Source: Podarcis cretensis (taxonomy: Eukaryota). From it: a stretch of DNA of 64,000 bases. Below the pieces are notes generated by a model, which saw only the letters and a list, made by a program, of their open reading frames with translations, was not told the origin of the DNA and did no database searches. The DNA is taken from NCBI GenBank assembly GCA_951804945.1, contig OX638152.1:71610001-71674000 (forward strand). The letters run 5' to 3'. The position numbers and the translations under genes are program-made. Positions within the stretch are counted from its first letter, which is position 1, and each line of letters begins with the position of its first letter. Of this stretch, positions 4,843 to 62,650 are shown one piece after another.

Positions 4843-6354
4843 CTTTAAGTCGTATTATGAATCAGCAGCTTTTTGCTGGCTGAAAGAATGGCTGCTTCTT
4901 CAGAACACAGACATTTTGGACTTAGAAGGTTTCGACAATGCTTTTGGGTGGCATGCATATCTGTGGTATGACAAGGTTAAAGTGCATAAGGCTTTTAAAA
5001 ATCATATTGTCAGAAGAACATTGTTTAATGTCTGGACAAGATATAAAGACTTACTTGAAAATAAAACCCCAAGGTGGTTATCACCTATGGAAGCGAAGGC
5101 TCTGAAAAACTCAATATGGAGGTCAATTGGCCAAAATATTGGGAGATTTTGGAACAGGAAGGTGACAAATTGAAATTGCAGAGTTTCAAGAAATTAAAGG
5201 ATAAAGTGAGAGATTGGCTTCATTATTTTCAAATAAGGGAGGCTTATAATCTAGATAAAATAATTGGTTTCCAGGTGGAAAAATCAAAACTAGAAACAGA
5301 ATTGTTAGAATCCAAAGCTAAGACACTATCAAAAATGTATAATCTGCTGCTGAAATGGAACACTGAAGATGAAACGGTAAAATCTGCTATGATAAAATGG
5401 GCACAAGATATCGGCTATAATATTATGTTTGCTGACTGGGAACAGTTGTGGACCACAGGTATGAAATTCACGGTATGTAATGCCTTAAGAGAGAATATTA
5501 TGAAAATGATATACTGGTGGTACATGACCCCAGTCAAGCTTGCAAAAATCTATCATCTGCCCGATAATAAATGTTGGAAATGTAAAGAGACTGAAGGTAC
5601 ATTCTTTCACCTCTGGTGGACGTGCCCAAAGATTAAGGCTTTCTGGGAAATGATCTATAATGAATTGAAAAAGGTATTTAAATATACCTTCTTGAAGAAA
5701 CCAGAGGCCTTTCTCTTGGGTATGGTCGGCCAAGGGGTGTTAAAGAAGGACAGAACTTTTTTTATGTATGCTACAGCAGCAGCAAGAATACTCATCGCAA
5801 AGCATTGGAAGATACAAGACCTACCCACCTTGGAAGAATGGCAGATGCAAGTAATGGACTATATGGAATTGGCTGAAATGACTGGCAGAATCCGAGACCA
5901 GGGAGAAGAGTCGGTGGAAGAAGATTGGAAGAAATTCAAAATCTACCCACAGAAACACTGCAAAATTATTGAATGTTAATGACGTTGGAATGAAATGAAG
6001 TGGTTCTAGTAATAGGGTAAAATAAGAATAGGCAAGAAGGGATGGATTTTGGATGAAAATTTGAAGTTAAAATATGTGATGATAAATAATTAAGGGTACA
6101 ATATGAGGCTATGAATTTGCTGAATAAATCTTTAAATGGAATACAAAAAAAGGGAGGTGTGAGGAAGTCACGAAAATAAGTAAATGAATGTAAGATATTA
6201 TAAAAGAGGGATTTTTTAGATTTTATTTTTTCTTTTTATGTTGAATTTTGGTTTTTGTATTTTTGTATTTTTTGTGTTTTTTTTGTGTGTGTCATTATTT
6301 TGTAACTCTTTTTTGTTAAAAATTGAATAAATATTATTTAAAAAAAACCAACAC
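4843..6354 (+). mobile_element. 5'-truncated L1-clade LINE (ORF2 C-terminus, 3'UTR, poly-A)
   Basis: CWKC...GTFFHLWWTCPKI cysteine-rich domain; T-rich 3'UTR, AATAAA, A tail; 14-bp TSD AATTATTTGGAGGA (4829-4842, 6355-6368). Confidence 0.92.
4844..5979 (+). pseudogene. L1 ORF2 C-terminal fragment with one frameshift near 5105
   Basis: ORFs 4835-5173 and 5074-5979 join if one A is added to the A-run in CTGAAAAACTC. Confidence 0.85.
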
Positions 6355-14890: not shown

Positions 14891-15254
14891 AAAGCCCTTT
14901 AAAGCCCTAAACGGCCTCGGTCCAGTATACCTGAAGGAGCGTCTCCACCCCCATCATTCTGCCCGGACGCTGAGGTCTAGCGCCGAGGGCCTTCTGGCGG
15001 TTCCCTCACTGCGAGAAGTAAAGCTACAGGGAACCAGGCAGAGGGCCTTCTCGGTAGTGGCGCCCGCCCTGTGGAACGCCCTTCCAGCAGATGTCAAAGC
15101 GATTAACAACTACCTGACATTCAGAAGACATCTTAAGGCAGCCCTGTTCAGGGAAGTTTTTAACGTGTGATATTTTATTGTATTTTTGCTTTCTATGGAA
15201 GCCGCCCAGAGTGGCTGGGGAGGCCCAGCCAGATGGGCGGGGTATAAATAATAA

Positions 15255-15297
<43 letters not shown>
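14891..15297 (+). mobile_element. L2-clade LINE 3' end with (TTA)n tail
   Basis: FKALNGLGPVYL...RAFSVVAPALWNALP; CpG-rich, so young. Confidence 0.9.
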
Positions 15298-19230: not shown

Positions 19231-21228
19231 GCACCCAATTAAGCACCCAATTTATAATATCTGCGAAAAGGCAAGCAGCTCTCAGTATATGCAAGAATAA
19301 TTCTGCAAGAGAAATTATATGGCATTTCCCTCATCTACCCAGGTGTCTTTTCTGCATAGGAAGCACAATGCCCCTAGCAGCTTCCTTCTGTCTTAGGTTT
19401 CTAATGTAGCAGAGAGACAGAATCGCAAGCTTAAAGTGCCAACAGCCAGCAGCTTTCTAGTGGCATCATTTTGTTTTCTGCTGTTGTTGTGTAAAAAAAA
19501 ACAGCAGCAAAAACCCAGCAAGGAAGATTCTCATGTCTCCCACCCCACCTGCAAATGGTTGTCTCATTTCTTATGGATTATCTAATTCTCACATCACCGC
19601 CTGCATTTTCCCCCCTTTTCACAGCTTTCTATCTTTGTGAAACATTAAGGCTGATATGCCATACATGTTCATTTTTATGCCTGTACTTGAACTACTCACT
19701 CTGTTCGGCTGCTTCGCTCTGATTTTTTTTCTTCTATACCAAGGCACCCGCTCTGCAATCCCCTGATACAGGAGGGCTGCCAAACTGCTGCAGGCTTTCT
19801 GAACATTACAGCCCTGCAAAATGTCAAATGATCTTCCAGTGAAGCTTGCTGGCTCAGTGGTATCTATTCATATGCTTGGAACATCTCCCTCTGGGCTTCC
19901 TCGAGCTTTCTCTTCTAATCCTTTCGTTCCCTCAAGAGCCCATCACTTGGCATATTGATTTCGCAACCCCCTATTAGCCAGACCAGGCATGGTATTCTCA
20001 GCTGAGCTGGTTCCACAAGCTCCTCAAGACTCCTGATGCAGCCTGTGATCCAGGAAGCAAAGCCATGCATTTGTCGCAAAAATCCTGCTTATTCTGTGTG
20101 GGGAATGGCAGGCATTTACTGCACTTTCAAAACATCTTATACAAGTTTGGATGGAACACTAATGCAAATTTGTTGATGCTACCTATAGAGATGGGGAGGG
20201 GTGGAACATAGAGACAGGGTCTTTGTTAAACATTAAGCAGAAGAAAACTAGAACAATCCACTTCAGTATTTAAATTAATTCAAATGATTAATTAATTAGT
20301 TCGACATTTACTTTGTTCTTTAATGAATAGTTTTTCACCACCTGTGTCTACGGTTTCTTGTCCCTTCTGGGCTTGATAGCTCCTCAACCCTCATGGGAAA
20401 CTTCCTGTATAATTGCACAATACAATGTAACCTTTATTTGAGGATCCAACTTGATGTGCCGATCTGCCTCATTTCCCCAAAGATTGCTGCTGTTCTTTTG
20501 CCATGTGAAGCCACTGCTTTTCAACTACGACTTTCACATTCTTCCTTCCCAACATTTCTTAGTCTTTTGTTGTCTTATATTCACATCTGTTTTTGCTTAG
20601 ACATTTCCTTCTGTGACCTCTTTCTCTTGTGATTTTGATCCTTACTCCTTTAATTGTTGTTGTTGTTACTATAGGTATTCTGGGTTCCTGTTCTATTTTA
20701 TTTGCAAGTATAATTATTCCTTCCCAAATAAGTCTGTAATAGTTATGTTCGAGCTAAGAACCAGAAACAGAGGCAGAATGACTATCAAAGGACTGGAGTG
20801 CAATTCCAGTGACAGCTGAGATTCCTTTAAGGCAGGGAGATAGGGAGCCTCAGGTTCCAAGGAACAAATGTGGCCCTTGGGACTCTCCTAGGCCATGACC
20901 TCTCTCCTCAAGCCACACCCTTCACTGGTCCTGCTCCATGTCCTCTTCAACTGATTGCCTAGAATTTGTCTGAATGGAGGTTGTGTGTTGCTTTGTGAAT
21001 GTCAAAACATTTGAGTTTTGTGTGGCCAGAATGTAACCTCCTGTAGAAAAGTGAGAGTCATATGTGTTTCTCAGCTCACTTTTCCCTCTTCCTGCCTACC
21101 CCTGGCATGTACACACACACACCAGGTTGGCTATCCTGAAGTGTGGGCTTCAGATTGAAAGAGGTTCTCCAACCCTGCCTAAAGAGACTGAGAAGCACAA
21201 GGCTTGCACCAATCAATCTAGGAGGAAC

Positions 21229-21721
21229 TGTCAGAATTCATGGTCGATCAGAGGTATGTGCCTATCTCTCCAGGCACCGGCTGAATTCTTTCGACCTCCC
21301 TCCGGCGACTCCCGGCAGGAAAAACACACGAGGTCCGTTCCGGCGATTTTCCTCAGGCTGTGAGAAAAACACACCAACTGCTTCTCCTCCTCCCTGCTCT
21401 CCAGCATATCCCAGGGAGGGGAATCAGACACAGACAGAAATGTATCTACATGTTTTTTATTCCTGTCTTCAGCAGTCAAACAGTGAAAGATGTCTGCTCT
21501 CTTCAACAAACAGAGAGAAACTCCAAACTCCACCCATGTACATCCTGTACAGGTCATATGACACACACACTGAGCTAACATCCGGTGCTCAGTACAGAAT
21601 GGACTGCCCCTTTGTTTCCATGGCAACAGTCACAAACATCCTGTCTGGCTTTGCAGCCACAAGCAGCTGACTGAGCTGCTGGAGCCTTTGCTTGCTGCAG
21701 CATTGCTGCTTTAGAATAACA
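21229..21721 (-). repeat. 3' LTR of Copia element (493 bp)
   Basis: Preceded on minus strand by PPT; AATAAA on minus strand at 21456-21461. Confidence 0.96.
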
Positions 21722-23824
21722 TACTCCCCCTAAAGTATCAATGCGTGCTGCGAGCAAAGCGTCATCCAGAGAAGAAAACAAACAGTTGTTATACTTATAA
21801 CACTCCCCTGTTGTTTCAGTTCCACCCTTGGAACTACCCGCCACTGGTTTTACCAATGTACCTCTCTGGTTGTGTGACTTCAAAGGAATGAGTGCATCTG
21901 CATTACCTTGGTTAGCAACTCTCTGTTGTGCCTTTGTCTCTGACTCAGACACAGCTTCAATTTGACCTTGGTCGTTTACAACAGCAACACATGCAATAGC
22001 TTGGTTGGCAAACTTATTTGAATACCTCTTGGGTGGTACACCCTTCGTTGCTCTCTCAGACCTACGTAAGAGGTGCTGCTCTCCCTTGCTTTCTGGTTCA
22101 GCCTCTGAACTCTCTGAAGAACCAGTACTAAGCTTAATCAGTGGGTCATCCTCCTCTTCTGAGGGTCTAGTCATTACGTGAGATTTCCTCTCAATGACTG
22201 TGACAACTGAGCTGTCTGAGCTATCGCTGTCATCATCAGTACTACTGAACTCAATAAGATCAAACTCATCATCATCATCATCAGAATCATCATCATCACC
22301 TGTGGGAAATATGTGAACAATCACTCTCTCCTGTTCAGGAGCACTCTCTAGGAATTTTGTGAGAATCACCTGTCCAGATTCAGACAAAATTACTCTGTAG
22401 AGACCCTTTTCATAACCCACAAAAATGCCTCTGGCATTCTTTACTCCACCTGGAGCTTCTGTCCTCACATGAGACCCAAAAACCTTGAAATGGGCAACAG
22501 AAGGTTTTCTGTGGAACAGTTTCTCAAAAGGAGAACATCCCAAGTCTTTTGAAACCTTTCTCAACCACGTGTAACAAAATGACATTAGTGACTCAGCCCA
22601 GTACTCATGTGGCAGATGTGAACTAAGCAATTGCGCATGCATTCCCTTTTGCAATTCTTTGTTCACCCTAACACAAACACATCTGTTCCAAGCTTCTTCG
22701 GAAGCTGCAATTTTGTGTCTTATCCCTTTCTTCTTCAGGAACCTCTGGAAATCCTGTAAGAGAAAAATTGGCTTCTCATCTGTGCAAAGACAATCTATGT
22801 CAGCATCATGCATATTTTTAACCTTATCACAAAACTCTTTAAACCTTTCTAAGGCTTCTTTCGGTCTCTCCAAAAGATAAATCCAGACAAAACCTGTAAA
22901 AGAATCAACACATATTAGGTAATACTTTGCATTGCCTCTAGATGGTGCTAAAGGACCAATCACATCAGCATACACCCGCTGAAATGCCCTGTCGACCCTT
23001 GAGGTGACCTGCTTGGCGTTCTTCTTGGCTACACCTGCAAAAGAAATCATGTTAGAATCACAAGAATTACATTCCATGTAATCACTTTGATTAAAAGTCA
23101 ACAAATACAGTCCATCTTTCTCTTTGGCAGAAAGATACAACTCTCCATCTTTGTAGATCTCGCAGTTCTCATCATCATAGGACAGTTTTAGTCCCTTCTT
23201 GGCGATCTGCGAAACGCTGAGCAGATTGTACTTCAACTCTGGAACCAAATAAACATTGTTTATAGTCAAGTTCAGACTTTTAAGATACACAGTCCCAATT
23301 CCGGTCGCTTCTAGCTCTTGACCGTTGGCTTGTTGTACAACGAAGCTTTGCTTCTTAAACGACAAAAACAAATCCCTGCGATGGGTCATGTGAACCGTCG
23401 CTCCCGTGTCTAAAACGAAGGAATTCCCCACTTGTGGTGTGGCTTTTAGGGACATCAAAGCCTTTGCAGGCTTCGCCTGTGACTTGGCATGACTTCTGCC
23501 TGACGCCTCAGACTTCGTGGAGCTTCCCTTGGCTCCTTTGTTCTGACGTGGCTTCTTGCAGTACCGCTGAAGATGCCCAGTCTGTCCACAATTGTGGCAT
23601 CGGACAACGTTCAAAGCTACAGCGTCTCCTCCAGTAGCTACAGCAGTGGGGGTGTCTGAACTCCGTTCTTCCCTCCCCCTGTCCTTGACTTCCAGGGCGG
23701 CAAGTCTGTCATGTTCACAAAGAACCACGGCAAAGACCCTGTCCGCCGTTAGATCAGCTGCTGGGAGAGACCCCAGCTGACTGGCAACCGTTTTGTAAGT
23801 CCGATTCAGGCTGTTGATCACCAT
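21575..23824 (-). CDS. Copia Gag C-terminus, CCHC zinc knuckle, aspartic protease, catalytically altered integrase, acidic tail; no RT/RNase H; runs into 3' LTR
   Basis: CHNCGQTGHLQRYC (23558-23599); FVLDTGATVHM (DTG at 23402-23410); NVYLVPELKYNLLSVSQI; YADVIGP...CTD...GIRH...LPHEYWAE...SPFEKLFHRKPSVAHFKVFG; GIFVGY; LRRSERATKGVPPKRY followed by no RT motifs. Confidence 0.9.
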   Translation of the reverse strand: MVINSLNRTYKTVASQLGSLPAADLTADRVFAVVLCEHDRLAALEVKDRGREERSSDTPTAVATGGDAVALNVVRCHNCGQTGHLQRYCKKPRQNKGAKGSSTKSEASGRSHAKSQAKPAKALMSLKATPQVGNSFVLDTGATVHMTHRRDLFLSFKKQSFVVQQANGQELEATGIGTVYLKSLNLTINNVYLVPELKYNLLSVSQIAKKGLKLSYDDENCEIYKDGELYLSAKEKDGLYLLTFNQSDYMECNSCDSNMISFAGVAKKNAKQVTSRVDRAFQRVYADVIGPLAPSRGNAKYYLICVDSFTGFVWIYLLERPKEALERFKEFCDKVKNMHDADIDCLCTDEKPIFLLQDFQRFLKKKGIRHKIAASEEAWNRCVCVRVNKELQKGMHAQLLSSHLPHEYWAESLMSFCYTWLRKVSKDLGCSPFEKLFHRKPSVAHFKVFGSHVRTEAPGGVKNARGIFVGYEKGLYRVILSESGQVILTKFLESAPEQERVIVHIFPTGDDDDSDDDDDEFDLIEFSSTDDDSDSSDSSVVTVIERKSHVMTRPSEEEDDPLIKLSTGSSESSEAEPESKGEQHLLRRSERATKGVPPKRYSNKFANQAIACVAVVNDQGQIEAVSESETKAQQRVANQGNADALIPLKSHNQRGTLVKPVAGSSKGGTETTGECYKYNNCLFSSLDDALLAARIDTLGGVCYSKAAMLQQAKAPAAQSAACGCKARQDVCDCCHGNKGAVHSVLSTGC
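21722..21735 (-). promoter_or_regulatory. Polypurine tract
   Basis: Minus strand TTTAGGGGGAGTA immediately before TG of the 3' LTR. Confidence 0.85.
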
Positions 23825-24273
23825 GAAGCAAAACCCTCCTGCAGACGGAAATTGCGTTCCACCATCTGCTGACGCAGAAATTTCATTTCCGTCAGGTGCG
23901 CTTGAACATCTCCATCAGGCGCAAGCCTCAGGTTAGTCAGCTTTTCAAAATACAGCAACGCTGAAGAACCTGCATCTCTCTGATGTGTCCTTCTCAGCGT
24001 GTCCCAAACATCTTTCGCGTGCTGTAAATCTTGTATATGAATAAGCTGAGAGTCTGACATGCACAGAATTATAGCGGTTCTGGCCTTCACATCCTGTGAC
24101 TCCCAAACAGGCGTTGGTGCTGCAGGGATGGGGTTCTCAATCACCCCAAACAGTCTCTGATTCTGCAGCAAGGCCTTCATCTTAATAGACCAAGATGCAT
24201 AATTCTCATTGGTCAGAAGGGGCGGAGAAGGCAGACCCCCCCCCTTCTTGGCATCCATTTTGAGTCCTTGCAT
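23818..24273 (-). CDS. gag: Copia Gag N-terminal/capsid part (continues into 21575-23824 after a -1 frame change)
   Basis: LTNENYASWSIKMKALL, WESQDVKARTAIILCMSDSQLIHI, AKDVWDTL are typical Copia Gag motifs. Confidence 0.88.
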   Translation of the reverse strand: MQGLKMDAKKGGGLPSPPLLTNENYASWSIKMKALLQNQRLFGVIENPIPAAPTPVWESQDVKARTAIILCMSDSQLIHIQDLQHAKDVWDTLRRTHQRDAGSSALLYFEKLTNLRLAPDGDVQAHLTEMKFLRQQMVERNFRLQEGFASW

Positions 24274-24763
24274 TGACTCTCAAACACAAGCCTCTAAAAT
24301 CCAATAGCTGGCTTGTTTACACTCTGTGCACCTGGCAGCTCTAACACTGGCTGCTTGGAAAGTCCCTTCCAACAGTTCCTTTGTAAGGGCCTAGTCTAAA
24401 CACGAGCTGTTTTAGCCTCTCTGGGCACAGCCTGACTTCCAGCCCTTATCTTGAAACTGGCCTGCGTTGCTAAGCAACCACATTCCTTTCCTTGGACAGG
24501 AAAAACCACAGGAATGTGTGGAATGCAGACTCTTCTCTCTCGGAGCTGTTTTTCCCAAACGTTGCTCCCGTGAAGCAGAGAATTAAGCCATCTGCATACA
24601 CACTCTTAAGCCCGAAAATCTCATACCTGGGCTCCGTAGCTTGGCTTTCAGCTTCTTCTGGTCAGCTTCTAGCTGCAGAGAATCAGCCTCCATCTCAGGC
24701 TTCCATGGAGAGGGATGAAAATAGCAGCTCTGCTCCTATTTCTGCAGACTTCCATGGATCGTA

Positions 24764-24783
24764 GAAACCATCCTCTGCTACCA
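24764..24783 (-). promoter_or_regulatory. Primer-binding site for initiator tRNA-Met
   Basis: + strand GAAACCATCCTCTGCTACCA equals the 3' 20 nt of vertebrate tRNA-iMet including CCA; 1 nt from the LTR. Confidence 0.93.
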
Positions 24784-24784
24784 A

Positions 24785-25277
24785 TGTCAGAATTCATGGT
24801 CGATCAGAGGTATGTGCCTATCTCTCCAGGCACCGGCTGAATTCTTTCGACCTCCCTCCGGCGACTCCCGGCAGGAAAAACACACGAGGTCCGTTCCGGC
24901 GATTTTCCTCAGGCTGTGAGAAAAACACACCAACTGCTTCTCCTCCTCCCTGCTCTCCAGCATATCCCAGGGAGGGGAATCAGACACAGACAGAAATGTA
25001 TCTACATGTTTTTTATTCCTGTCTTCAGCAGTCAAACAGTGAAAGATGTCTGCTCTCTTCAACAAACAGAGAGAAACTCCAAACTCCACCCATGTACATC
25101 CTGTACAGGTCATATGACACACACACTGAGCTAACATCCGGTGCTCAGTACAGAATGGACTGCCCCTTTGTTTCCATGGCAACAGTCACAAACATCCTGT
25201 CTGGCTTTGCAGCCACAAGCAGCTGACTGAGCTGCTGGAGCCTTTGCTTGCTGCAGCATTGCTGCTTTAGAATAACA
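24785..25277 (-). repeat. 5' LTR of Copia element (493 bp)
   Basis: Minus strand TGTTATTC...AATTCTGACA, followed by PBS; no difference from 21229-21721 seen by eye. Confidence 0.96.
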
Positions 25278-25377
25278 GGAACTAGGGTTCTACACCCGAA
25301 GCCTGGGTGTTCAGGTCATGCAGACAGGTGAAGCTGCCAGTGTCCCATTGCGCCCTTCTTCCCAATATTCTCCTAGC

Positions 25378-28800: not shown

Positions 28801-31318
28801 AATATGAATGAAAATAATTCTCAAATATCAAAGTCTAATCTTCTACACTGTTGTGATTACATACTTTTTGGATTTTTGTTAATATGCCTGTGCCTGTTGA
28901 GACAAAGTGTAGTGGATTATATTTTACTCCCTGTCACTTTCAGAAGCAAATGTCTCCACACTTTGCTTACACTTATGAATGTTAAGTGCAGAAATTTGCA
29001 TTGATATGAAGGCATATTTACAATATGTGTGCATGTGAGTACTCTATGTGCATGTGTGCTCTTATCATTTTAGACTGGGATGGGGCACTCAAAGAAATCC
29101 AAAGTTAAAATAACTGAACTAACAAACAGTTTATCAATAAAGGGTGGCCAACGTGGTGCCCTCCAGATATTGCTAGATCCCAACACCCATCAGCCCCAGC
29201 CAGCATAACAATGGCCAGGAATGATGGGAACTGTAGTCCAACAACATCTAGAGAGCCACTGACACACACACACACCACATCCCTGTCCTTGGGATGTCTG
29301 CCCCATCCTGCCTCATGTTGGCTATCCCTCAATTCTCTTTCCCCTTTTCTCTCTCAGCAACTCTCTCTCCACAACAAAGTTCTGCTTCAAAAATTGTCCA
29401 AGAAAACCAGTTTCCCTTTATCTTCTTTATCAGTTAGCATTTGACCATTACAACAAGCAGATTATCTGGGGTTCTAGCCCCCTTTGCTTCCCCTTTTCTA
29501 GGAACCTTGAGTGCCAGCAGAAAAGCCTATCTATACGACCCAGTCCTCCATAAAAAACAACTAAGAATCTTGTGGCACATTATTTTCTTCAACAGACCAG
29601 GGTGCTTATTCATTTGGAAATCCTCCATCAGAGGAAGAGTATATGGGTTCCTGGATGCCTCTTTTCCATGCAGGACATCATAGACAACAAAGCAGTGGAG
29701 AGCACAGAGAAAGAGGGAGAAAAAGAGAAGCATCCCAAAGGACCTCTTCCTCCATTCAAGGCCTCAACAGTGGAGAAACCTAGATACACACACACACTAG
29801 AACTCTAGACCAACCTCAGCATGCCACACTAGTGAGAACTGAACATAAGAAGCAGACAGACAACTGTAGGGTTGCCATATATCGAAAAGTGAAAATCTGG
29901 ACAGAAACGTTGTTGAGCTGTGGTTGGCAACCCTAGCACAACTGATCTGTCTAGCAACAGCTCTCCAGAGTGTAGACAGAGGACATTCCCAACCCTAGGG
30001 CTGGCCCACCCATGAGACACACTGATACAGCTGCTTTGAGCAGGGGAATCCAAGGGGGTGCCATTGCCACAGGTGCCCCACCCGCTGCTGCCAGAGATGC
30101 AAGATGTCACTGGGACCCAGAAGCTGTGGCCACAACCGTACAACTCCAGTAAGTGAGACTATGGCAGGGGTAGGGAGGAGGGCAGTGAAGAGGGACATAG
30201 CTCCCCTTCTATGCGTGCTGGATTTTAAACCTGATACCTTCTGCATGAAATGGAAATGCTCTACCAGTGAGCTACAGCCCTTTCTTTCAGATTGTAGCAT
30301 CTATCCCAAAGGCTTCTCTGCTTTTTTCAAGATATCAATAGTGGGAGGAGGCGAAACCTCAAAATATGTACCCCAGATCACCTCAGCAGGCCACACCAGG
30401 GACAACTGAAAGTTAGGCATGTCAAGCATGTCTCTTTAAAAAGAAAACAATAGGTTCTATTTGCTATGTCCATAGATAGACTCTGTCTGAAGCCTGATAT
30501 GTGGATAGAAAGAAAGAAAATTCCCAGTGGGAAATGTCTGCCAGCTAACAGTGCATTAGCATGGTTCTTAAGGACACTTAAAGGTGAAAAGGAACTATTC
30601 ATTGCTCTCAAGAAAGTATCTAATCAGCTTTGCTAGCTGTTGTAACTCTGCATTTTCACAGTTTGAGGAGGCAACAGTAAGTGTAGCTTTTAAATCAACT
30701 ATGGCATTTCCCCCCTGTATCTAACAGAAACAAATAACAATGTTCTAACCATTACAGTATTCATCATAGATGTGAAGGTAATTTCTTAAGGTGATGGCTT
30801 AAAATTCAGCATAGGAGCTCTGAACTGGCATGTGAAAAGATGGTCAGCCACAGTCATCATTCTGGTGGTTTGACCTAATACCAGTGGACCATACATTTGT
30901 AGCAGCATCACAAGTTTCTGGCTGAAAAATCCCGGTTTCTTATCTTGCTGATGTTTAATATTGATCAAGGCACACACAATAACTTTGACAGTCTTCTTGA
31001 ATAATTACACAGTTGTGTCTGACTTTTTCTGATTGAAATTCTGGGTAAGTGCTGTGTGCACGGAATGTGCAACACTAGAGAAAGTATCGAAACTTTAGTG
31101 TTTTTGCTCAACCCATCATCCAGCAACTTCATAAAGTATCATTTTGACAACAGGTGCATAATCCATCAATATATAAATTTCAGTTCAAGTAATCTAAATG
31201 CAACCTAGAAAATCTATGCCACACCCCAAAACTCTAGGAAAAAGCATTAAATATATCATCTCTATGTGTTGACTAGGGCTTCCATAGAACACCCAGCAGT
31301 GAGTTGATATAAAAAGTA

Positions 31319-32363
31319 CCGTATTTTTCGCTCTATAACACGCACCTGACCATAACACGCACATCGTTTTTAGAGGAGGAAAACAAGGGAAAAAACATTC
31401 TGAATGAAACAGTGGATGTATCATTTTTGTGCTTCATGCTGTGGCCACAGACATGTGATCTGATGGTGAATTTGGGGTGACCCAATGCAAAAATCTTGAG
31501 GATCCATGTAGATCCATGCTTTGTAACCACATTTTTGCACCATTGCAGCCCCAGGCAACAGTGGGTGCGTGATTTTGGGGGGGGCAGGCTGTAGCCATGG
31601 ACACGCTATGTGCTCTGATGGTGAATTTGGGCTGACCCAATGCAAAGATCCTGAGGATCCATGTGGATCCATGCTTTGTAACCACATTTTTGCACCATTG
31701 CAGCCCCAGGCAATAGTGGGTACGTGATTTTTGGGGGGCAGGCTGTAGCCATGGACATGCTATGTGCTCTGATGGTGAATTTGGGCTGACCCAATGCAAA
31801 GATCCTGAGGATCCATGTGGATCCGTGCTTTGTAACCACGTTTTAAGTGGGGAGGGAAGGAAAAATATAGAAGGGACAAGGAGCACGAGAGGGGTGTGCG
31901 GAGAAGCAGCTGGCTAAGAATGCAGGAGAGGGGTTTAAAGGGGGGGGGAAAGGAAGGCAAAAGTCCACCCACCCACTCAAGCCAGCCCCCCCTCTCTCTC
32001 TCTTATCTGCATGTTTTCCGCTGCCTGCGAGTCCCCAGACGCAGCAGCAGCAGCAGCACCGGAGCGGACACTCTGCTTTCCTCTCTACTTGCCTGGAGGG
32101 GAGGGGATTTCACTGCTCTTTGTTCCGTCTGAGCAAACAGCAACTGAAACAGAACAGGGTGGGCAGTAAGACCCTGAGGCAAAATGCAGGAAAGCAGCAG
32201 CCTTCTCTCCTCCGTGACAGCACAATATGATTTTTGCCTGATTTTTGCCATGCACTTGGGACAAACGGCTCCAGGGACCACACATTCGCTCTATAACACG
32301 CACAGACATTTCCCCTTACTTTTTAGGAGAAAAAATCTGTGTGTTATAGAGGGAAAAATACGG
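31319..32363. mobile_element. Tc1/mariner-pogo-type non-autonomous element with internal minisatellite
   Basis: TA|CCGTATTTTTC...GAAAAATACGG|TA termini. Confidence 0.88.
31453..31839 (+). repeat. ~154-bp tandem repeat, 2.5 copies
   Basis: Units start at 31453, 31608 and 31762. Confidence 0.9.
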
Positions 32364-34466: not shown

Positions 34467-35134
34467 TACAAATGTGGAGAATCACCTGGTTACTTTCAAG
34501 CTAAAACTGCAATCCTGGGCTCAGTTACTTGGGAGAAGGTCCATTAAACTCAATGTGACTTAATTTCAAGCAGGCATATACAGGGGATTTTGCATTGTCT
34601 AAATCAAGGTATTGGCACATTTTAAAAACCAAGACAGAAAGTAATAATGCATGAAGTTTAGCACTATGAAAGACTAGAAAGCAGTGTGCTTGATTTACAT
34701 ACTCTACTTATCAGTTTCCGTTAATGCAGCCATCACCATTAAACTATTAATTTTCTATTTCTTAACTCTAACAAATGATAATGCCATTCATTCATTAACA
34801 CTGGAAAGTGAAAAATATTGACCCATTAAACCTTTGATGAATCCACTCTAAGAGATAATTCTTCTCTGTAAGTTTGTTCTTAATTCTAGCTTGTCTGTGT
34901 GATTGGTTTTATTTTTGGAAGGGATTTCTAGTCTTCAGTGCACACAACTAATATTCCCACTCTCCTACTCCAGAGACCAGCACTATACAACCATTCACAT
35001 CAGGAACACATTGTGATGAGACAGAATATAGATACTGTATGCATGCTTTGAGTAACTCCTTTGGAAGAGAAAAGCAGGTGGTTGCATCCAACTAAACTAT
35101 TCCAAGTAGACCCATTGAAATTAATGGATTAAAG

Positions 35135-35270
35135 CAGTGTTTCCCAACCTTGTGCCTCCAGCTGTTTTTAGACTACAATTCCCATCATCCCTTGCCACTG
35201 GTCTTGCTAGTCAGGGATGATGGGAGTTGTAGTTCAAAAACAGCTGGAGGCACAAGGTTGGGAAACACTG
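35135..35270. mobile_element. Palindromic hAT MITE (136 bp); degraded relatives near 2285, 8803 and 29140
   Basis: Near-perfect fold-back CAGTGTTTCCCAACCTTGTGCCTCCAGCTGTTTTT; 8-bp TSD GATTAAAG. Confidence 0.92.
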
Positions 35271-38200
35271 GATTAAAGGCAGCCATGCCCAATAATTTCA
35301 ACATGCCCTCTCCAAGCAGGACTAACATAGGATCCAACCCAGAATATAAAGTTTTGCATAAATAAGTTCTAGTGGTTTTGCTAAAAGCAAATCCCATCAT
35401 TGGCCACCACAGGCTGAGCCAATTCTGCATACTGTTTTCCTGCTCCAGAAAATATTACTCCAATAGATTCAAATTATTTAGGCTAGGAAAGACTAAAGTT
35501 TCATCCAAAGATTTTTCTTTAATCTTTGACCTCACCTGTAAGTCAGAACTCAACACTTAAAGCCTAAATATTCATGGAAAATAGCTTAAGGAAATTGTGT
35601 TGGTTTCTGGTAGAGCTGTCAGGTTTGAGGGGGTTCCAAGAAAAATGCCACTCCACATATTCTCACACTGATTTATCTCCATTCCATACTGCCTTCTCCA
35701 AGCATCATTTATATTGATCATTCATAATGGCTTGTGTTCATTATGCTGGTGGGGCAGTTATATGGAAACATGCTTTCAGTTCCATTTGAACCTCCCAATC
35801 TTTTGGGGCTGTCATGCTATAGGCCCTTGTCCCATAGTTTCCTGCTGTAATTCTATAAATTCTAATACTACAGATTTTCGGAGGGTTGCCCCGTTCTTGT
35901 TGCACTATGTGGAAGAGTGGCCATAATGGGGTGACACTGCTGAAACATTGCAGAACAACTAGTAAAGCACAATAGTGTGTGGTACCACTATGAAGTTTTT
36001 CCAAGCAGATGTGCTGCTGGTGGAACAAGCTCCAAAGAGTCACACTCATTGTCTTCAGGTCTCAGGATGCTTATGCACCAATGTGGGGCATGGTGTGCGA
36101 ATGTGTGTGTGTGTCATTTTCTCTCTTTAAAAATGACAGATATCATGGTGGCTGCCATTGTGACAACATCAGTTGGGGCCTCTTAAGGGCTGTGCAGCCC
36201 TCAGACATTCCCCAAGCACTCTGTCTGCAATGATGTAGTTTCTTCTATCCACAGAGTGAAAAATTGGGACCCAAGCCTATATTTGCTGTTATTGCCAGAT
36301 ATCTGTATCTGCTATCATGGAAGATCTATCCAAAACCAAGAATGGACAATAAGCTTCCCAACAATCCAAGTTAGGGATCTACAAACTAACCCATTCTCTT
36401 CTAAATGTGAAAACAGCTGAAAGAAGCAGCCATCATTTAGCAAGCCCCCCTGTTCTGTTTGCATCTGCTTTTGTTGCAACAGGTACAAAAAACATAAACA
36501 AACAAATAAATTGGCATGAAGGATGAACATTGGCATTGCATGAGCTCTCCCAAAACCCATTAATCCAGCAATATACTCCTTTGGTGCCCTTTCTGTATTC
36601 TTCTGGTATCATTAATAAATGCAGAGTTTGTCAAGCAGGGGAGCACTGCAAGGAAAACAATTTACAAAGACCGAGTAGGTGGTACAATTTGGTCACCATA
36701 AGCTGATTGGCATTGTAGGTGGAATTCTGAGTTCTAGAAATGTGTTGGGAGCTGCTTTGTACACAACCATGGCAGATCTGTCATTTCTTTCTATCTGTCC
36801 TGCATGTTTAGGTGTGCATTTATTTTTAAAGAGCAGAATTAGCCATTCCTTTTCTGCTACAATTTAAATATGTCTTGTACCATCATCATCATCACCATCA
36901 TCCTCTCTCTCCAAAATCAGTACATTTCCATGGTTTGATTATTGATGGGGGCCAAGCTACACATTTTTTTTTAAAAAAACACCCATACACCTTTTAAAAT
37001 ATAAAAGTGTACTTCAGATGCCAACTTTTTGTTTTGATTGCTCCATTGAATGACCTTTTAAAAAAAGTAACAAAAAGTACAAAAACAGTTCAATCTCTTC
37101 CCATCAAAACCAAACTAATCCAAACCCAGTTCTAGGCTTTCTCTGCCACTATTTCTCCAGGTGAACAAAATCCAATTTATATGCATCTCAATGTGAAACT
37201 AGCAAATTCACATTTCTCCAATCAGTATGTAAACCGAAACACATCTATCGTTTGAAATCCACACTTCTCCAAAATTTGAAATGCAGCTCTCCATTCAGCC
37301 AACATGTAGGAAAATGCATATATTGCTGCTGGAGTGGGGTGGCAGTCTGCAAATTGTTGAGGAAATGTGGAAAACTGAATTTAACGCTGAGCAATTTAGA
37401 CAACTGCTCTGTAACCCCAAGTGTGCTATTTTTGTACAGCATACTGTGACTCTTCTTCCCAACTGGAAAGAGTTCAAATAATATCCCACTCCAACAAAAA
37501 TGGTACGTACACCTCAATGCTGCCAATTAAAGATTGCACTCAAATTACAAGTGTCAAAATGCTGAAATACTGTCAAATAGGAAAATATCAAATACAGAAA
37601 GGGTAATATCAGATGACAGGTAGCAATTATTTAATATTCATCCCTGGAAATCAAAAGAGGTAGAAAATGTCAAGAACCACAGAATTTGACCCAAACTTAA
37701 TTTGATTCTGTTTTCATAATTGCCAAAATATTTCTATTTTTGGTGTTTAGATTGCATAGATGCATAAACTCCACCAATGAAGAAATACTCTCCCAAATGT
37801 CTGTGAACTCTGCTGTTCTTGCCTGTTGGTTTTATGCTGTGTTTTGACTTTTTAAAATTTCAATAACATAAGCCTTCAAATTTTTATTGCAATTCCACAC
37901 AATGCTCTATCTGCCTGGAGACAGAATTTACATTTGATGCCATTTCTTCCTGGCAGGTACAATGGCAGAATCAGAATAAAAGCAAGCTCTTTGATAAGCA
38001 TGAGAACTCATTTAGATACCTGGGTGACAATTCTCATTCAGATACTCTCATAAAGACCACATTTACATGCCAGCAATAGGAGACTATAAAGAGGGGAGAA
38101 ATAATAACATTAAAGAAGCTCAATGAAATATTAATGTTGCCCTGTATGCGCTCCATTATGGTGCATGCAAACTCTGTAGGTTTACAGTTTTATGGGAAGG

Positions 38201-45200: not shown

Positions 45201-47797
45201 TGGCAATGGCAAGTCATTACACCTGCTAGGTGAAATGAAACTCTGTGTGTGCGTTCTTTTCTGTTTGTATTTATCTGTAGTGTAGTTCCTCACACAGTGA
45301 AGTTAACAGTAGAAGTCCTGGGATATATGCAAGGAGTCCACTATGTTGTTCTTCCCTAGGCAAGTGTTTCTGTAATTTCTAAAGCATTCAGAATTGGCGG
45401 GAGCAGGGGCCAAAGCACGAGTTTCATCCATGTAGCCCAGGCCTTTAAAAAGTTAAGCATCATCACCATCACGAAAATGAACTACTGTATTTCAAAAAGC
45501 AATTTACAAAGCAGGGTCAGGGATTGTTACCGATGTATCATCTCCTGTTGCATTATCAAGTGGAAGAACTGAGCAGACAAATAATATTTAGCTTATTGAC
45601 AATTTCAAATTAATAAGCATCTTCTTGAAGGTTCCAGACCTTGAAAGAACTGTGCTAAGGTGGCTTTCACACCCCCAAATATGTAGGGCCTTTCAGCAAC
45701 AAGATACTTTGGCACTTAAAATGTTAACTTCCACAGAAGAATGTGCAGCCATCAATGCATTTTGCCAAGCTAACATGCCATGTCTTGCAGGTGACTGCAG
45801 CATCTGGAAACAGTCAGGTCATGTACTGGGAGGAGCGCAGCAAGATGAGATGCATCAGCACAACCAGAAACCTTCATCTGCCCCAGCTGCAGCAAAACAT
45901 ATCTATCTTGTATCAGTCTTTACAGCTGAAACAGGTGCTGTAACTCTCCGACAGTTGACTTCACTCTCGAAGGACCAGTCTACCAGATGGATGCCAACCA
46001 ATAATATGCAACCCATGAGGTCTTAAAGAGCACTTAGATATAATACCTATCAACATGGTGTGTCCATGCTGTATTTTCATCTGAATGAATTTTAACAAGG
46101 AAAAACCAACAAGAACAATATGATATAGATATATTGTTTCAATATAGTGGCTACTCCTTTTTTTAAATCTAATTACCAGAATTTTTTCTGCCACAACAAA
46201 ATGATTTCATGGCTGTATGATTAAGTGATCTAATAGATGTTCCAACAGCAGAAGACATCAATGTTTTACTAAGAGTGAAGGAAACCCATTTTCTGTTGCC
46301 TTTTAGTCACAGGTAAGAAGCAATAGGACACTTTATGGGGTTAAATAAACAAAGAGATTTTTTTCCAGTGTTGCACAAGCAGCAAGTAATGTCAAGGATA
46401 TTTCTAATTCCCTGAACTAAATGTGGTATTTATCAAAGCTTTCTTTCTTGATAATGATGCCACCTCTTACAAGGTTAAAAATCTTTAAGCTCAATTTTAC
46501 GCTTCTAGGATCTGATGTTAAGTTCCTCGGGTAGCTCTAGTGATTCTTTCATCCCATCAGTCAAATAAAGAAAATTGATTCAGACCCTGTACAGAAGCAG
46601 AAGCAAAAATATGCATGGTGTGCTAACACTGCTGCAAAATCCATATTCCGAGGTGAAGATCTATAAAATAGCTTTATAAAACAACAAAAGGGTAGAACTT
46701 AGGCTATACTGAGTCTTTGCAAAAGAAGTGCTTGCAACATGTTTTCCCCAATACGTTTTTTCCATCTCGTTCGTTAAATGTCCATTCCCCAAATAGCTGC
46801 TGATTTGGTGCCATTTCTTCAGACGTCTTCCTGATTTGAAGTAAACAAGGAATGCGTAGTAACTGTGATAAAGTCGTGAGTATCATTAGCCAATCAGACT
46901 TGGCTATGTGATGTTGCTGGGTCACTTCAGAGTAAAGGCAGTGCTTCCTGGGTCAGCAAATACTGCATTAATGTGAATATAATGTGCCATTGAATATAAT
47001 GTGCACCTCAATTTTCAAAACCTTGAAACCAAAAAAGTATTTGTGGTGAATGTAAATGCACCATTGAATCTAATGTGTGTCATAATTTTTGTGACATAAT
47101 TTGGCTAAAAAAGTTGCACATTACATTCAAGTAAATATGGTGCTAGCATGCTTTTGCTATAGTATATTTCCTCCCTATGACTGTGAAGAAGAGGAATTTT
47201 GACAGTTGTAAAAGTTCATGAAAAATGTCCCAATTTTGTTCAGCATTTGTAGAATATTTTGTGTAAAGAAAGGAGCATCTTTTCTACCCAGAATTCCTTG
47301 GGTCAGCTAGATCAAAAGGCTACATGTTCCATTTCGCAGTCAAAGCAACCCAAGTGTTGGTTCCAATGTCTGCCAATAAGCAACTGTTTTGGCAATATGG
47401 CCAACTGATTTCATGGAGGAAGGCCCACCAGTAATGAGCTGCTGTGCTCATTAGGCCTTACACTCAACCAAGATTGTGGAGATGGCGTTTTTGCTAATAA
47501 AGCGTTAACTCCAACTTTGGACTGTGTGATTACTGACCGGCACACTCTGTGACAGTGTAGTAAGAATGTCTGTGGGCTGAATCATATTTAATATGTGGTT
47601 GAAAATGGATGGATGGATTGATTGATATAATCACTGTGGGTGAATGAGGCATCAGGTTTTATTCTGTCACTAATGCACAAAGTCCCCTTGCCACAAAATT
47701 TCCCCATGAACTTCTTTGGAGTGGGCAGCACTGGGCAAGCAAATGGATACTCACTGTAGAAGCTCTGGAACAGGGCAACTTAACCTTACAGGACATA

Positions 47798-48162
47798 CCG
47801 TATTTTTTGCAACATAACACTCACTTTTTTCCTCCTAGAAAGTAAGGGGAAATGTCTGTGCATGTTATGAAGCGAATGCCTGCGGGTGGCGGGAGGGATC
47901 TGCTGCAGTCGTGAGCAGAGGATCCATGGTTCCCCTCCCTTCCCTCCTCCATGGTTACAAAGCATGGATCCACATGGATCCTCAGGATTTTTGCATTGGG
48001 CTACTCCAAACTCACTGTCAGATCACATGTCTGTGGCCACAGCATGAACCACAAATATCATATATCCCCTATTTCATTTAGAATATTTTTTTTCTTGTTT
48101 TCCTCCTCTAAAAACTTCGTGTGTGTTATGGTCTGGTGCGTGTTATAGAGCGAAAAATACGG
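47798..48162. mobile_element. Shorter, oppositely oriented copy of the 31319 family
   Basis: TA|CCGTATTTTT...AAAAATACGG|TA; shares the GGATCCACATGGATCC block. Confidence 0.85.
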
Positions 48163-48218
48163 TACATCATAGGATTCTCTACATTTCTGTTAGCTCCTAT
48201 AGTCTTCAATTACCATTA

Positions 48219-61934: not shown

Positions 61935-62607
61935 GCTATCCATGGAGGCACAGGTTAATTCTGTGTCCAGGGCGGCTGTCTACCAGCTCCACCTGGTACG
62001 CAGACTGAGACCCTACCTGCCCACAGACTGTTGCGCCAGAGTGGTGCATGCATTAGTTATCTCCCGCTTGGACTACTGCAATGCTCTCTACGTGGGGCTA
62101 CCTTTGAAGGTGACCCGGAAACTGCAATTAATCCAGAATATGGCAGCTAGACTGGTGACTGGGAGTGGCCACTGGGACCACATAACACCGGTCCTGAGAG
62201 ATCTGCATTGGCTCCCAGTATGTTTCTGAGCACAATTCAAAGTGTTGGTGCTGACCTTTAAAGCCCTAAATGGCCTTGGTCCTGTATACCAGAAGGAGTG
62301 TCTCCACCCCCATCATTCAGTCCAGACACTGAGATCCAGCACCAAGGGCATTCTGGCAGTTCCCTCATTGCGAGAAGTGAGGTTACAGGGAACCAGACAG
62401 AGGGCCTTCTCGGTAGTGGCGCCCGCCATGTGGAATGCCCTCCCTTCAGATGTGAAGGAAATAACCAGCTATCTTACCTTTAAAAGACATCTGAAGGCAG
62501 CCCTGTTTAGGGAAGTTTTTAATATTTAATGCTGTATTGTTTTTAACACTCGATTGGGATCCACCCAGAGTGGCTGGGGAAACTCAGCCAGATGGGTGGG
62601 GTATAAA

Positions 62608-62650
<43 letters not shown>
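61935..62650 (+). mobile_element. L2-clade LINE 3' fragment with (TTA)n tail
   Basis: ISRLDYCNALYVGLP...LQLIQNMAARLV...HITPVLRDLHWLPV; same family as 14891. Confidence 0.92.

Follow-up and report, generated by a model that had tools for sequence, protein, structure and literature searches.

Can an integrase that has lost its catalytic centre still be of use to the element that encodes it? The question is raised by a domain in the 64-kb window (the whole stretch of DNA analysed here) that retains an integrase scaffold without a complete active site, and for which an initial annotation had proposed two possible roles, either as a pseudo-enzyme that recruits the integrase (IN) and reverse transcriptase (RT) of a helper element into particles, or as a dominant-negative competitor. 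That annotation made no mention of the absent RT and RNase H, of the wider family or of the changed primer site.

Anatomy of the element

The domain belongs to a Copia-type LTR element of 4,049 bp (window 21229-25277, minus strand) whose coding content comprises Gag, protease and integrase, without RT or RNase H (RH). The 5' LTR (TGTTAT...CTGACA; 24785-25277, minus strand) and the 3' LTR (21229-21721, minus strand, with AATAAA at about 21461) are both 493 bp long and 100% identical, and the element is bordered by a 5-bp target site duplication (25278-25282, with the other copy at 21224-21228). The primer binding site (24764-24783, minus strand) presents 20 nt complementary to the 3' end, CCA included, of a host tRNA-Met(CAT), whose gene was called in the host genome by ARAGORN and which we take to be of the initiator type, while a polypurine tract (21722-21734, minus strand) ends in GGGGGAGTA before TGTT. 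LTRs with TG..CA ends, a primer binding site, a polypurine tract and a short target duplication are all hallmarks of Ty1/Copia elements, and the gene order is likewise that of Copia, with the integrase straight after the protease and remnants of RT and RH after the integrase.

All coding features lie on the minus strand. The reading frame opens with an ATG at 24258 into a Copia-type Gag capsid (23700-24258, 3' end approximate; Pfam Retrotran_gag_2, 3.3e-17, and DUF4219), followed by a CCHC zinc knuckle of the nucleocapsid (23552-23602; zf-CCHC, 5e-4), which is weakly constrained among young copies, and by an aspartic protease (23099-23419; Pol_BBD, 5.7e-20) with an intact DTG that is kept in 52/52 intact copies. 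The integrase region consists of a remnant of the N-terminal zinc finger, the CxxC half only (22985-23098), a catalytic core with a remodelled post-D2 motif and catalytic loop (22475-22984), and a C-terminal SH3-like domain (22337-22474; SH3_retrovirus, 2.3e-5) that is 91% identical within the lineage. Beyond these lie an acidic linker with an RRSERATKG.PPKRY motif (22020-22336), the motif being common to the element and the autonomous family described below, and, at 21780-21871, short putative remnants of RT (its start, NQRGTLV) and RH (TTGECYKYNNCLF). The remnants are weak matches, in the expected order, to the autonomous families B and B2 (E 0.015; 63% over 19 aa, E 2.8e-4), and may mark the deletions that took out RT/RH. 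No RVT_2 match was obtained in the intact copies L088 and L175, compared with one in the autonomous relative L069. The ORF stops 145 nt inside the 3' LTR. In the window copy the gag ORF is split by a small private frameshifting deletion near 23835, and an unbroken ORF of 878-910 aa was found in 26 of 29 other loci.

Elsewhere in the window, two repeat copies at 14896-15291 and 62255-62650 are 84-86% similar and end in (TTA)n with SINE/LINE-like 3' ends, presumably of the Sauria type. We also noted, at 31316-31892, 47795-48165 and 35129-35276, a 155-bp tandem repeat, an inverted relative 16 kb off and a 64-bp hairpin (92%), together with an open frame of 304 aa at 5065-5979 that has no Pfam match and lies in a G- and A-skewed region.

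Loss of the catalytic residues

The initial annotation had described a D,D35E triad turned into D,D35V, and the residues bear this out. On the minus strand D1 (GAT, 22964-22966, in YADVIGP) and D2 (GAT, 22778-22780) are in place, and the position of the third acidic residue, D2+36, is occupied by valine (GTT, 22670-22672), with F+10, F+13, G+18, I+19, H+21, R+37 and N+39 all in register. This valine falls, gap-free, opposite the E of 9/9 autonomous Copia integrases of the genome and opposite the catalytic E of Ty1 integrase (PDB 7z0h_W), so the register is no alignment accident. The motifs EKPIF, SEEAWNRCVCVR, CNSC, LPHEYWAE, SPFE..HFKVFG and GIFVGY were likewise all found. Alignment to the rve profile was equivocal, giving an E-value of 1.8e-4 but a score of 22.2 bits against a cut-off of 32.6, with the autonomous relative L069 reaching 57.4 bits.

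The HH half of the zinc finger, reported missing, was removed by one deletion of about 50 aa that also took the protease-integrase linker and is present in 9/9 lineage rows aligned. The CNSC (CxxC) half said to remain does so in the window copy but is absent from several subfamilies. The GGEF motif and the P..P.QNG loop are gone as well. Of the features of an active DDE retro-integrase, both the D,D35E triad and the HHCC zinc finger are therefore lacking, and the RNase H-like core fold with an SH3-like C-terminal domain is retained in the predicted model. To call these losses specific was too strong, the domain being just 38-40% identical to its nearest autonomous relative; the idea survives in that the change is concentrated on the active-site face.

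Copies and subfamilies

At least 150 copies were returned by a protein search, with identities of 97-100% and, in most, a frame of about 900 aa, and a 23-mer spanning the LTR end and primer site occurs 115 times in the genome. The first 30 loci had been picked by similarity to the integrase itself, so counts of valine fixation use a separate sample of 60 of these 115 loci, fetched in list order with the window copy left out and hence independent of the integrase sequence. Fifty-nine of the 60 are full length, measuring some 4 kb or a little under and differing from the window copy by about 5%, and 52 passed a strict intact-ORF filter. Among the 52 scored copies of this sample, 35 have identical LTRs and 47 a 5-bp target duplication. 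All 59 full-length copies lack the E (58 V, 1 G), and in all 59 the core and SH3 region is open and complete, with D1 and D2. Had other copies carried E and NGGEY, the window copy could have been regarded as simply decayed; neither was seen in any sampled lineage copy.

Older subfamilies ranging from 95% to about 50% protein identity share the valine, the D-EKP motif, the deletion and the loss of RT, the third position being V, or in one copy I, in all 17 subfamily rows. V is also present in all 14 copies that lie closest to the most diverged lineage member, no RT match was found within 1.5 kb on each side of them, and no intermediates (E without RT, or the reverse) were seen among the copies nearest that member. 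Valine is also present in 3/3 Podarcis lilfordi proteins, and the zinc-finger deletion likewise occurs in proteins of that species. Close named proteins came only from P. lilfordi (74-81% identical), and among the best 150 of 137,422 representative-library matches the lineage signature was carried by a P. lilfordi protein alone. The lineage looks narrow in the libraries searched, which hold few repeat-derived animal proteins. One P. lilfordi protein labelled 'vomeronasal type-2 receptor 26-like' (P0004) is a piece of the element.

Several copies deserve separate mention. Five loci (L141, L149, L227, L228, L231) form an older subfamily in which the Gag N-terminus is quite different and the protease and pseudo-integrase are kept; L141 and L149 lack the zinc knuckle. 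Three young copies (L150, L020, L093) have deletions upstream of the protease and keep the pseudo-integrase, the LTRs of L150 being 99.8% identical, so that some mobilisation may take place without a complete Gag of their own. Five old copies (L225, L226, L229, L230, L233; G000:C8:87.87-88.08 Mb) lie on one strand at a spacing of ~47-59 kb, probably as a tandem segmental duplication.

Selection on the domain

To estimate dN/dS among the 52 intact young copies, site counts were weighted by a mutation spectrum taken either from the leader or from four-fold sites. The core stands at 0.38-0.42 (p 2e-6 to 2e-5) and SH3 at 0.30, close to gag (0.35-0.41) and protease (0.39-0.48); the linkers, zinc-finger remnant, acidic part and tail reach 0.66-0.89. 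The portion of the ORF that lies within the LTR also gives 0.4, which speaks against a reading in terms of protein alone. A codon model fitted to 17 copies spanning the subfamilies (14 for gag) gave 0.25 for the core (p 1.6e-35 vs 1), 0.28 for SH3, 0.23 for protease and 0.15 for gag, against 0.61, 0.56 and 0.60 for the zinc-finger remnant, acidic linker and tail, all dN/dS values in both analyses being inflated by post-insertion decay. A grid fit restricted to charged and amide sites put core and protease alike at ~0.3, SH3 at 0.15 and the tail at ~0.7; here each site was classed by its most frequent residue, a crude surface proxy that can bias omega. This constraint at charged and amide core sites suggests a surface in use, not a buried core alone.

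Synonymous change is low in some windows (0.07-0.15, against 0.22-0.46 in protease) and lowest at codons 626-675, so RNA-level constraint or recombination contributes to the constraint signal, and recombination between copies is likely. Around the SH3 end, at about 22260-22410 of the window, it is very low (0.07-0.11), and this stretch is a possible RNA signal, such as a splice site, a packaging element or an internal purine tract. Neutral-rate decay is nonetheless not what the domain displays, with dN/dS of 0.25-0.42, and with E absent from the sampled copies the reading as a pseudo-enzyme maintained by selection is supported.

Structure and history of the domain

AlphaFold2 predicts an integrase fold with the usual order of strands and helices (pLDDT 90.8 and pTM 0.86 in the best of five models, pLDDT 67-85 in the other four), from a 19-row input alignment that included active integrases and so helped the model toward this fold. 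All of the Foldseek matches listed for the model are retroviral integrases. A joint fold of protease and pseudo-integrase was of low confidence (pLDDT 53, pTM 0.44).

In the IN tree the stem of the lineage measures 0.87 substitutions per site against 0.26 for family B, and short branches follow; in the gag tree the relation is reversed (0.37 against 0.72), and the protease stems are 0.37 and 0.93, at a node supported by just 64%. Different parts of the domain have fared differently. Helices 43-61 and 125-143, which by analogy with retroviral integrases we take to be the core dimer helices, are 0.53 and 0.49 identical to family B, compared with 0.32 and 0.36 for the same helices between B and other families. 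Conversely, the post-D2 motif, loop and E-helix are just 0.12-0.25 identical to family B (post-D2 0.17, loop 0.12), and the post-D2 motif and catalytic loop, the segments best conserved among autonomous families, are the least B-like in the lineage. Within the lineage, however, the post-D2 motif and former E-helix are 0.87 identical, and two residues of the modelled domain, E72 and E112, occur in 10/10 lineage rows and 0/9 autonomous rows. The active face thus went through a burst of change and then came under new constraint, a course to be expected from a shift in function and not from decay.

A candidate helper

Several autonomous Copia families in the genome are intact and young. Family B (L067-L070, L075, L077-L080) is the nearest autonomous relative of the lineage, at 34% over Gag to integrase tail, and its sister in the gag, protease and IN trees, with many full ORFs and LTRs of 98.2-100%. 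We take it to belong, probably, to the Mtanga clade. The label follows from PMC11889832, which in its available text found Mtanga as the only clade in lepidosaurs and describes squamates as rich in Copia. The short stretches TGTT..ACA at the LTR termini and GGGGGAG(T/G)A at the polypurine junction occur in both the lineage and family B (the tract of family B reads GGGGGAGGA before TGTT), and LTR similarity does not extend beyond them.

Activity at the same time, use of the same primer site and conservation of LTR termini and polypurine tract are taken as signs of partnership in PMC9744471. Near-identical LTRs are found in the lineage and in family B alike, whereas the primer sites address the same tRNA-Met(CAT) at different places. 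In 19/20 autonomous loci (1 unresolved), and in the older B2 copy L203 as well, the site is an internal one of GGTTAT type that matches the anticodon arm; in the lineage it is the 3' end of that tRNA, matched over 18 nt in 41 of 60 copies, 20 nt in 4 and 11-13 nt in 14. An RT-bearing element with a 3'-end primer site was found in 0/38 loci checked (18/18 and 20 of 45), the RVT_2 search having scored 150 of 1,394 candidates, of which 20 were inspected. The primer site of L137 matches the tRNA over 36 nt and ends where the internal site begins, which, from its sequence, suggests a copied full-length primer and indicates how a switch of site could arise. An unrelated young LTR element with a distant integrase lies at L207 1988-8499 (787-bp LTRs at 99.7%). 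Family B is the likely helper of the lineage, and other helpers, including non-Copia elements, may also serve.

Possible roles of the pseudo-integrase

Loss of one DDE residue abolishes integration and RT is absent, so both RT and a catalytic IN must come in trans. The proposal that we favour, to which we give close to an even chance, is that this RT-less and recently very active Copia lineage uses its selected D,D,V domain as a cis-made, non-catalytic subunit that recruits helper IN-RT, likely from family B. In this model, the single ORF would supply Gag, protease and a dead core with SH3, and the polyprotein would assemble with its own RNA. The pseudo-core would then pair with a helper core via the retained helices, in the manner of outer intasome protomers, and this pairing would bring helper Pol into the particle or onto the element's cDNA. 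In Copia elements IN lies just before RT, and recruitment of helper IN/RT, as first suggested, would fit the anatomy of the element as read from its sequence. According to the available text of PMC9144474, intasomes include core-only partners and DDE mutants function in mixed multimers; protomers that give their core without engaging the viral DNA ends can be likened to a domain that has kept its core and lost its active site and N-terminal domain. The gag-pol fusion of IAP 1delta1 similarly acts in cis, with enzymes in trans, and so accounts for the success of that subtype, in what is available of PMC6466679.

Support for the helper model comes from the dimer-analogue helices, which stayed closest to family B when the active face did not. 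Part of this likeness is common ancestry, and conservation of the two helices may reflect self-dimerisation or folding instead of helper contact. The primer site, which differs from that of family B, and the LTRs, which agree just at their termini, speak against family B as the helper. The zinc finger aids oligomerisation of integrase, and its loss counts against the multimer model, as does, for the need of a pseudo-integrase subunit at all, the success of Gag-only and Gag-protease elements that have no integrase. In yeast, Ty1 IN given alone in trans did not rescue reverse transcription, nor did Ty3 CA-IN (PMC5371799, available text), which counts against simple recruitment of RT. A dedicated pseudo-enzyme, be it outer protomer or adaptor, that captures the Pol of another family, coupled with a priming site moved along the same tRNA, is a plausible combination with somewhat less than an even chance; if true, such a lineage would amount to a natural separation-of-function mutant in which the non-catalytic side of Copia integrase can be seen in isolation.

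The selection data would fit equally well a self-contained pseudo-integrase that remains fused to the protease and either self-dimerises for protease activation and maturation or binds its own RNA, with no helper contact. Continued fusion is envisaged because the deletion likely took the cleavage linker: a small-residue linker before the zinc finger was removed at the same junction in 9/9 lineage rows, although the position of the cleavage site is a predicted one. HIV DDE mutants retain RNA-binding and maturation roles in the available text of PMC9144474, but Gag-protease elements, Sabrina among them, manage without a module of this kind, going by the accessible part of PMC9744471, and we regard this explanation, the main alternative, as rather unlikely while giving it serious weight. 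It is improbable that the domain is a useless passenger, kept only because a misfolded or truncated version would be toxic to Gag, expose the RNA to decay or interfere with an RNA signal that overlaps it. Such constraint would suit the extension of the single ORF into the 3' LTR, the preponderance of in-frame indels within the ORF (19/25 listed events, against 5/24 in the leader) and the low synonymous change near the SH3 end. However, core and SH3 remain at 0.25-0.28 in an ORF whose flanking parts have relaxed to about 0.6, charged core sites are constrained, and new lineage-specific residues have become fixed on the former active face; moreover, an in-frame deletion could have dropped a useless domain as RT was dropped, yet 59/59 full-length copies keep it whole.

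Cryptic catalysis, in which a new acid (the fixed E right after D2, or an E five residues past V) replaces the lost E and the domain still integrates, could draw on the retention of D1 and D2 in 59/59 young copies, on the fixation of E72 and E112 and on the precise insertions. With the zinc finger, GGEF motif and P..P.QNG loop also lost, and a working integrase present in the same polyprotein of the helper that is needed for RT, we consider it very improbable. The same low standing falls to the idea that the domain poisons helper intasomes, whether as a dominant-negative competitor or in the manner of a host restriction factor. A product presumably made one-to-one with Gag, unless spliced, might favour the parasite in competition through such poisoning, but the copies are dispersed, mobile and freshly integrated (35/52 with identical LTRs), so that a working helper integrase is needed, no fixed host locus was seen, and family B is still abundant and intact. 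As a main role the competitor of the initial annotation is thus less likely, selection having been measured among copies just integrated with clean 5-bp duplications; selection in such copies points to a domain that aids the mobility of the element encoding it. As for ordinary decay of one dead copy, the private gag frameshift of the window copy would agree with it, but fixation of V in all sampled subfamilies and in the proteins of a second assembly, with dN/dS far below 1, refutes it and leaves it virtually no probability.

The pseudo-integrase bears on two matters of wider interest. Ideas on how non-autonomous LTR elements capture RT and integrase from distant helpers have come for the most part from DNA motifs, and what is known of the non-catalytic functions of retrotransposon integrase comes mainly from engineered yeast and HIV mutants. 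Here a natural experiment has removed catalysis and zinc finger and kept core and SH3 to 50% divergence, with at least 150 young copies, and the conserved surface offers a direct map for testing. RT-based surveys of animal Copia miss such elements, and P0004 is a case mislabelled as a host gene.

Comparison with known systems

RT-less elements with Gag or Gag-protease have been described in plants, namely TR-GAG (PMC4350172), RLG_Sabrina_SA (PMC9744471) and RLG_Quinta (PMC11302176). As far as the available texts of these reports go, the plant semi-autonomous elements resemble the lineage in having LTRs, a primer binding site, a polypurine tract, a 5-bp duplication, one intact Gag ORF and no RT, and in their long coexistence with an autonomous partner; TR-GAG shares the length of about 4 kb (PMC4350172) and Sabrina_SA the protease (PMC9744471). 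The same texts present them as without integrase (TR-GAG is defined by that absence, and Quinta has a DUF), whereas the lineage keeps core and SH3 under selection with a dead active site. The lineage therefore combines the intact Gag and missing RT of Gag or Gag-Pro semi-autonomous elements with an integrase that these lack, and with a protease that TR-GAG lacks as well. It further differs in its reptile host and in a primer site unlike that of its candidate helper.

Mouse IAP 1delta1, for which Saito 2008 is reportedly the primary paper, offers a second parallel. In the available text of PMC6466679 it shares with the lineage an internal deletion, a single Gag-Pol fusion ORF and enzymes supplied in trans, and is described as a highly successful subtype with a cis-acting fusion protein; IAPs are endogenous retroviruses, and 1delta1 is a deletion variant within that family. 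The lizard lineage, in contrast, shares just 34% identity with its nearest autonomous relative, and the active face of its integrase has been rebuilt.

Family B has the same gene order, the motifs GPLAPS, RFKEFC, YWAE, GYEKG and RRS.RATKG.PPKR and the same junction of polypurine tract and LTR, but differs in possessing HHCC, D,D35E, RT/RH and an internal tRNA-Met primer site. HIV-1 class I (DDE) mutants and outer protomers offer a parallel to the pseudo-integrase as catalytically dead integrase that folds, and they can serve in mixed multimers, on the available text of PMC9144474. The HIV-1 cases were made by engineering, or are places taken by a single wild-type protein, whereas the domain of the lineage is a separately encoded, naturally selected paralogue. 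In the openly accessible literature covered by our searches, no report was found of a non-autonomous LTR family with a selected, catalytically dead integrase, or of the lizard family itself, although Repbase or Dfam may hold a consensus entry for the latter. RT-less Gag and Gag-protease elements are thus already known, and the selected dead integrase is a new variant among semi-autonomous LTR elements.
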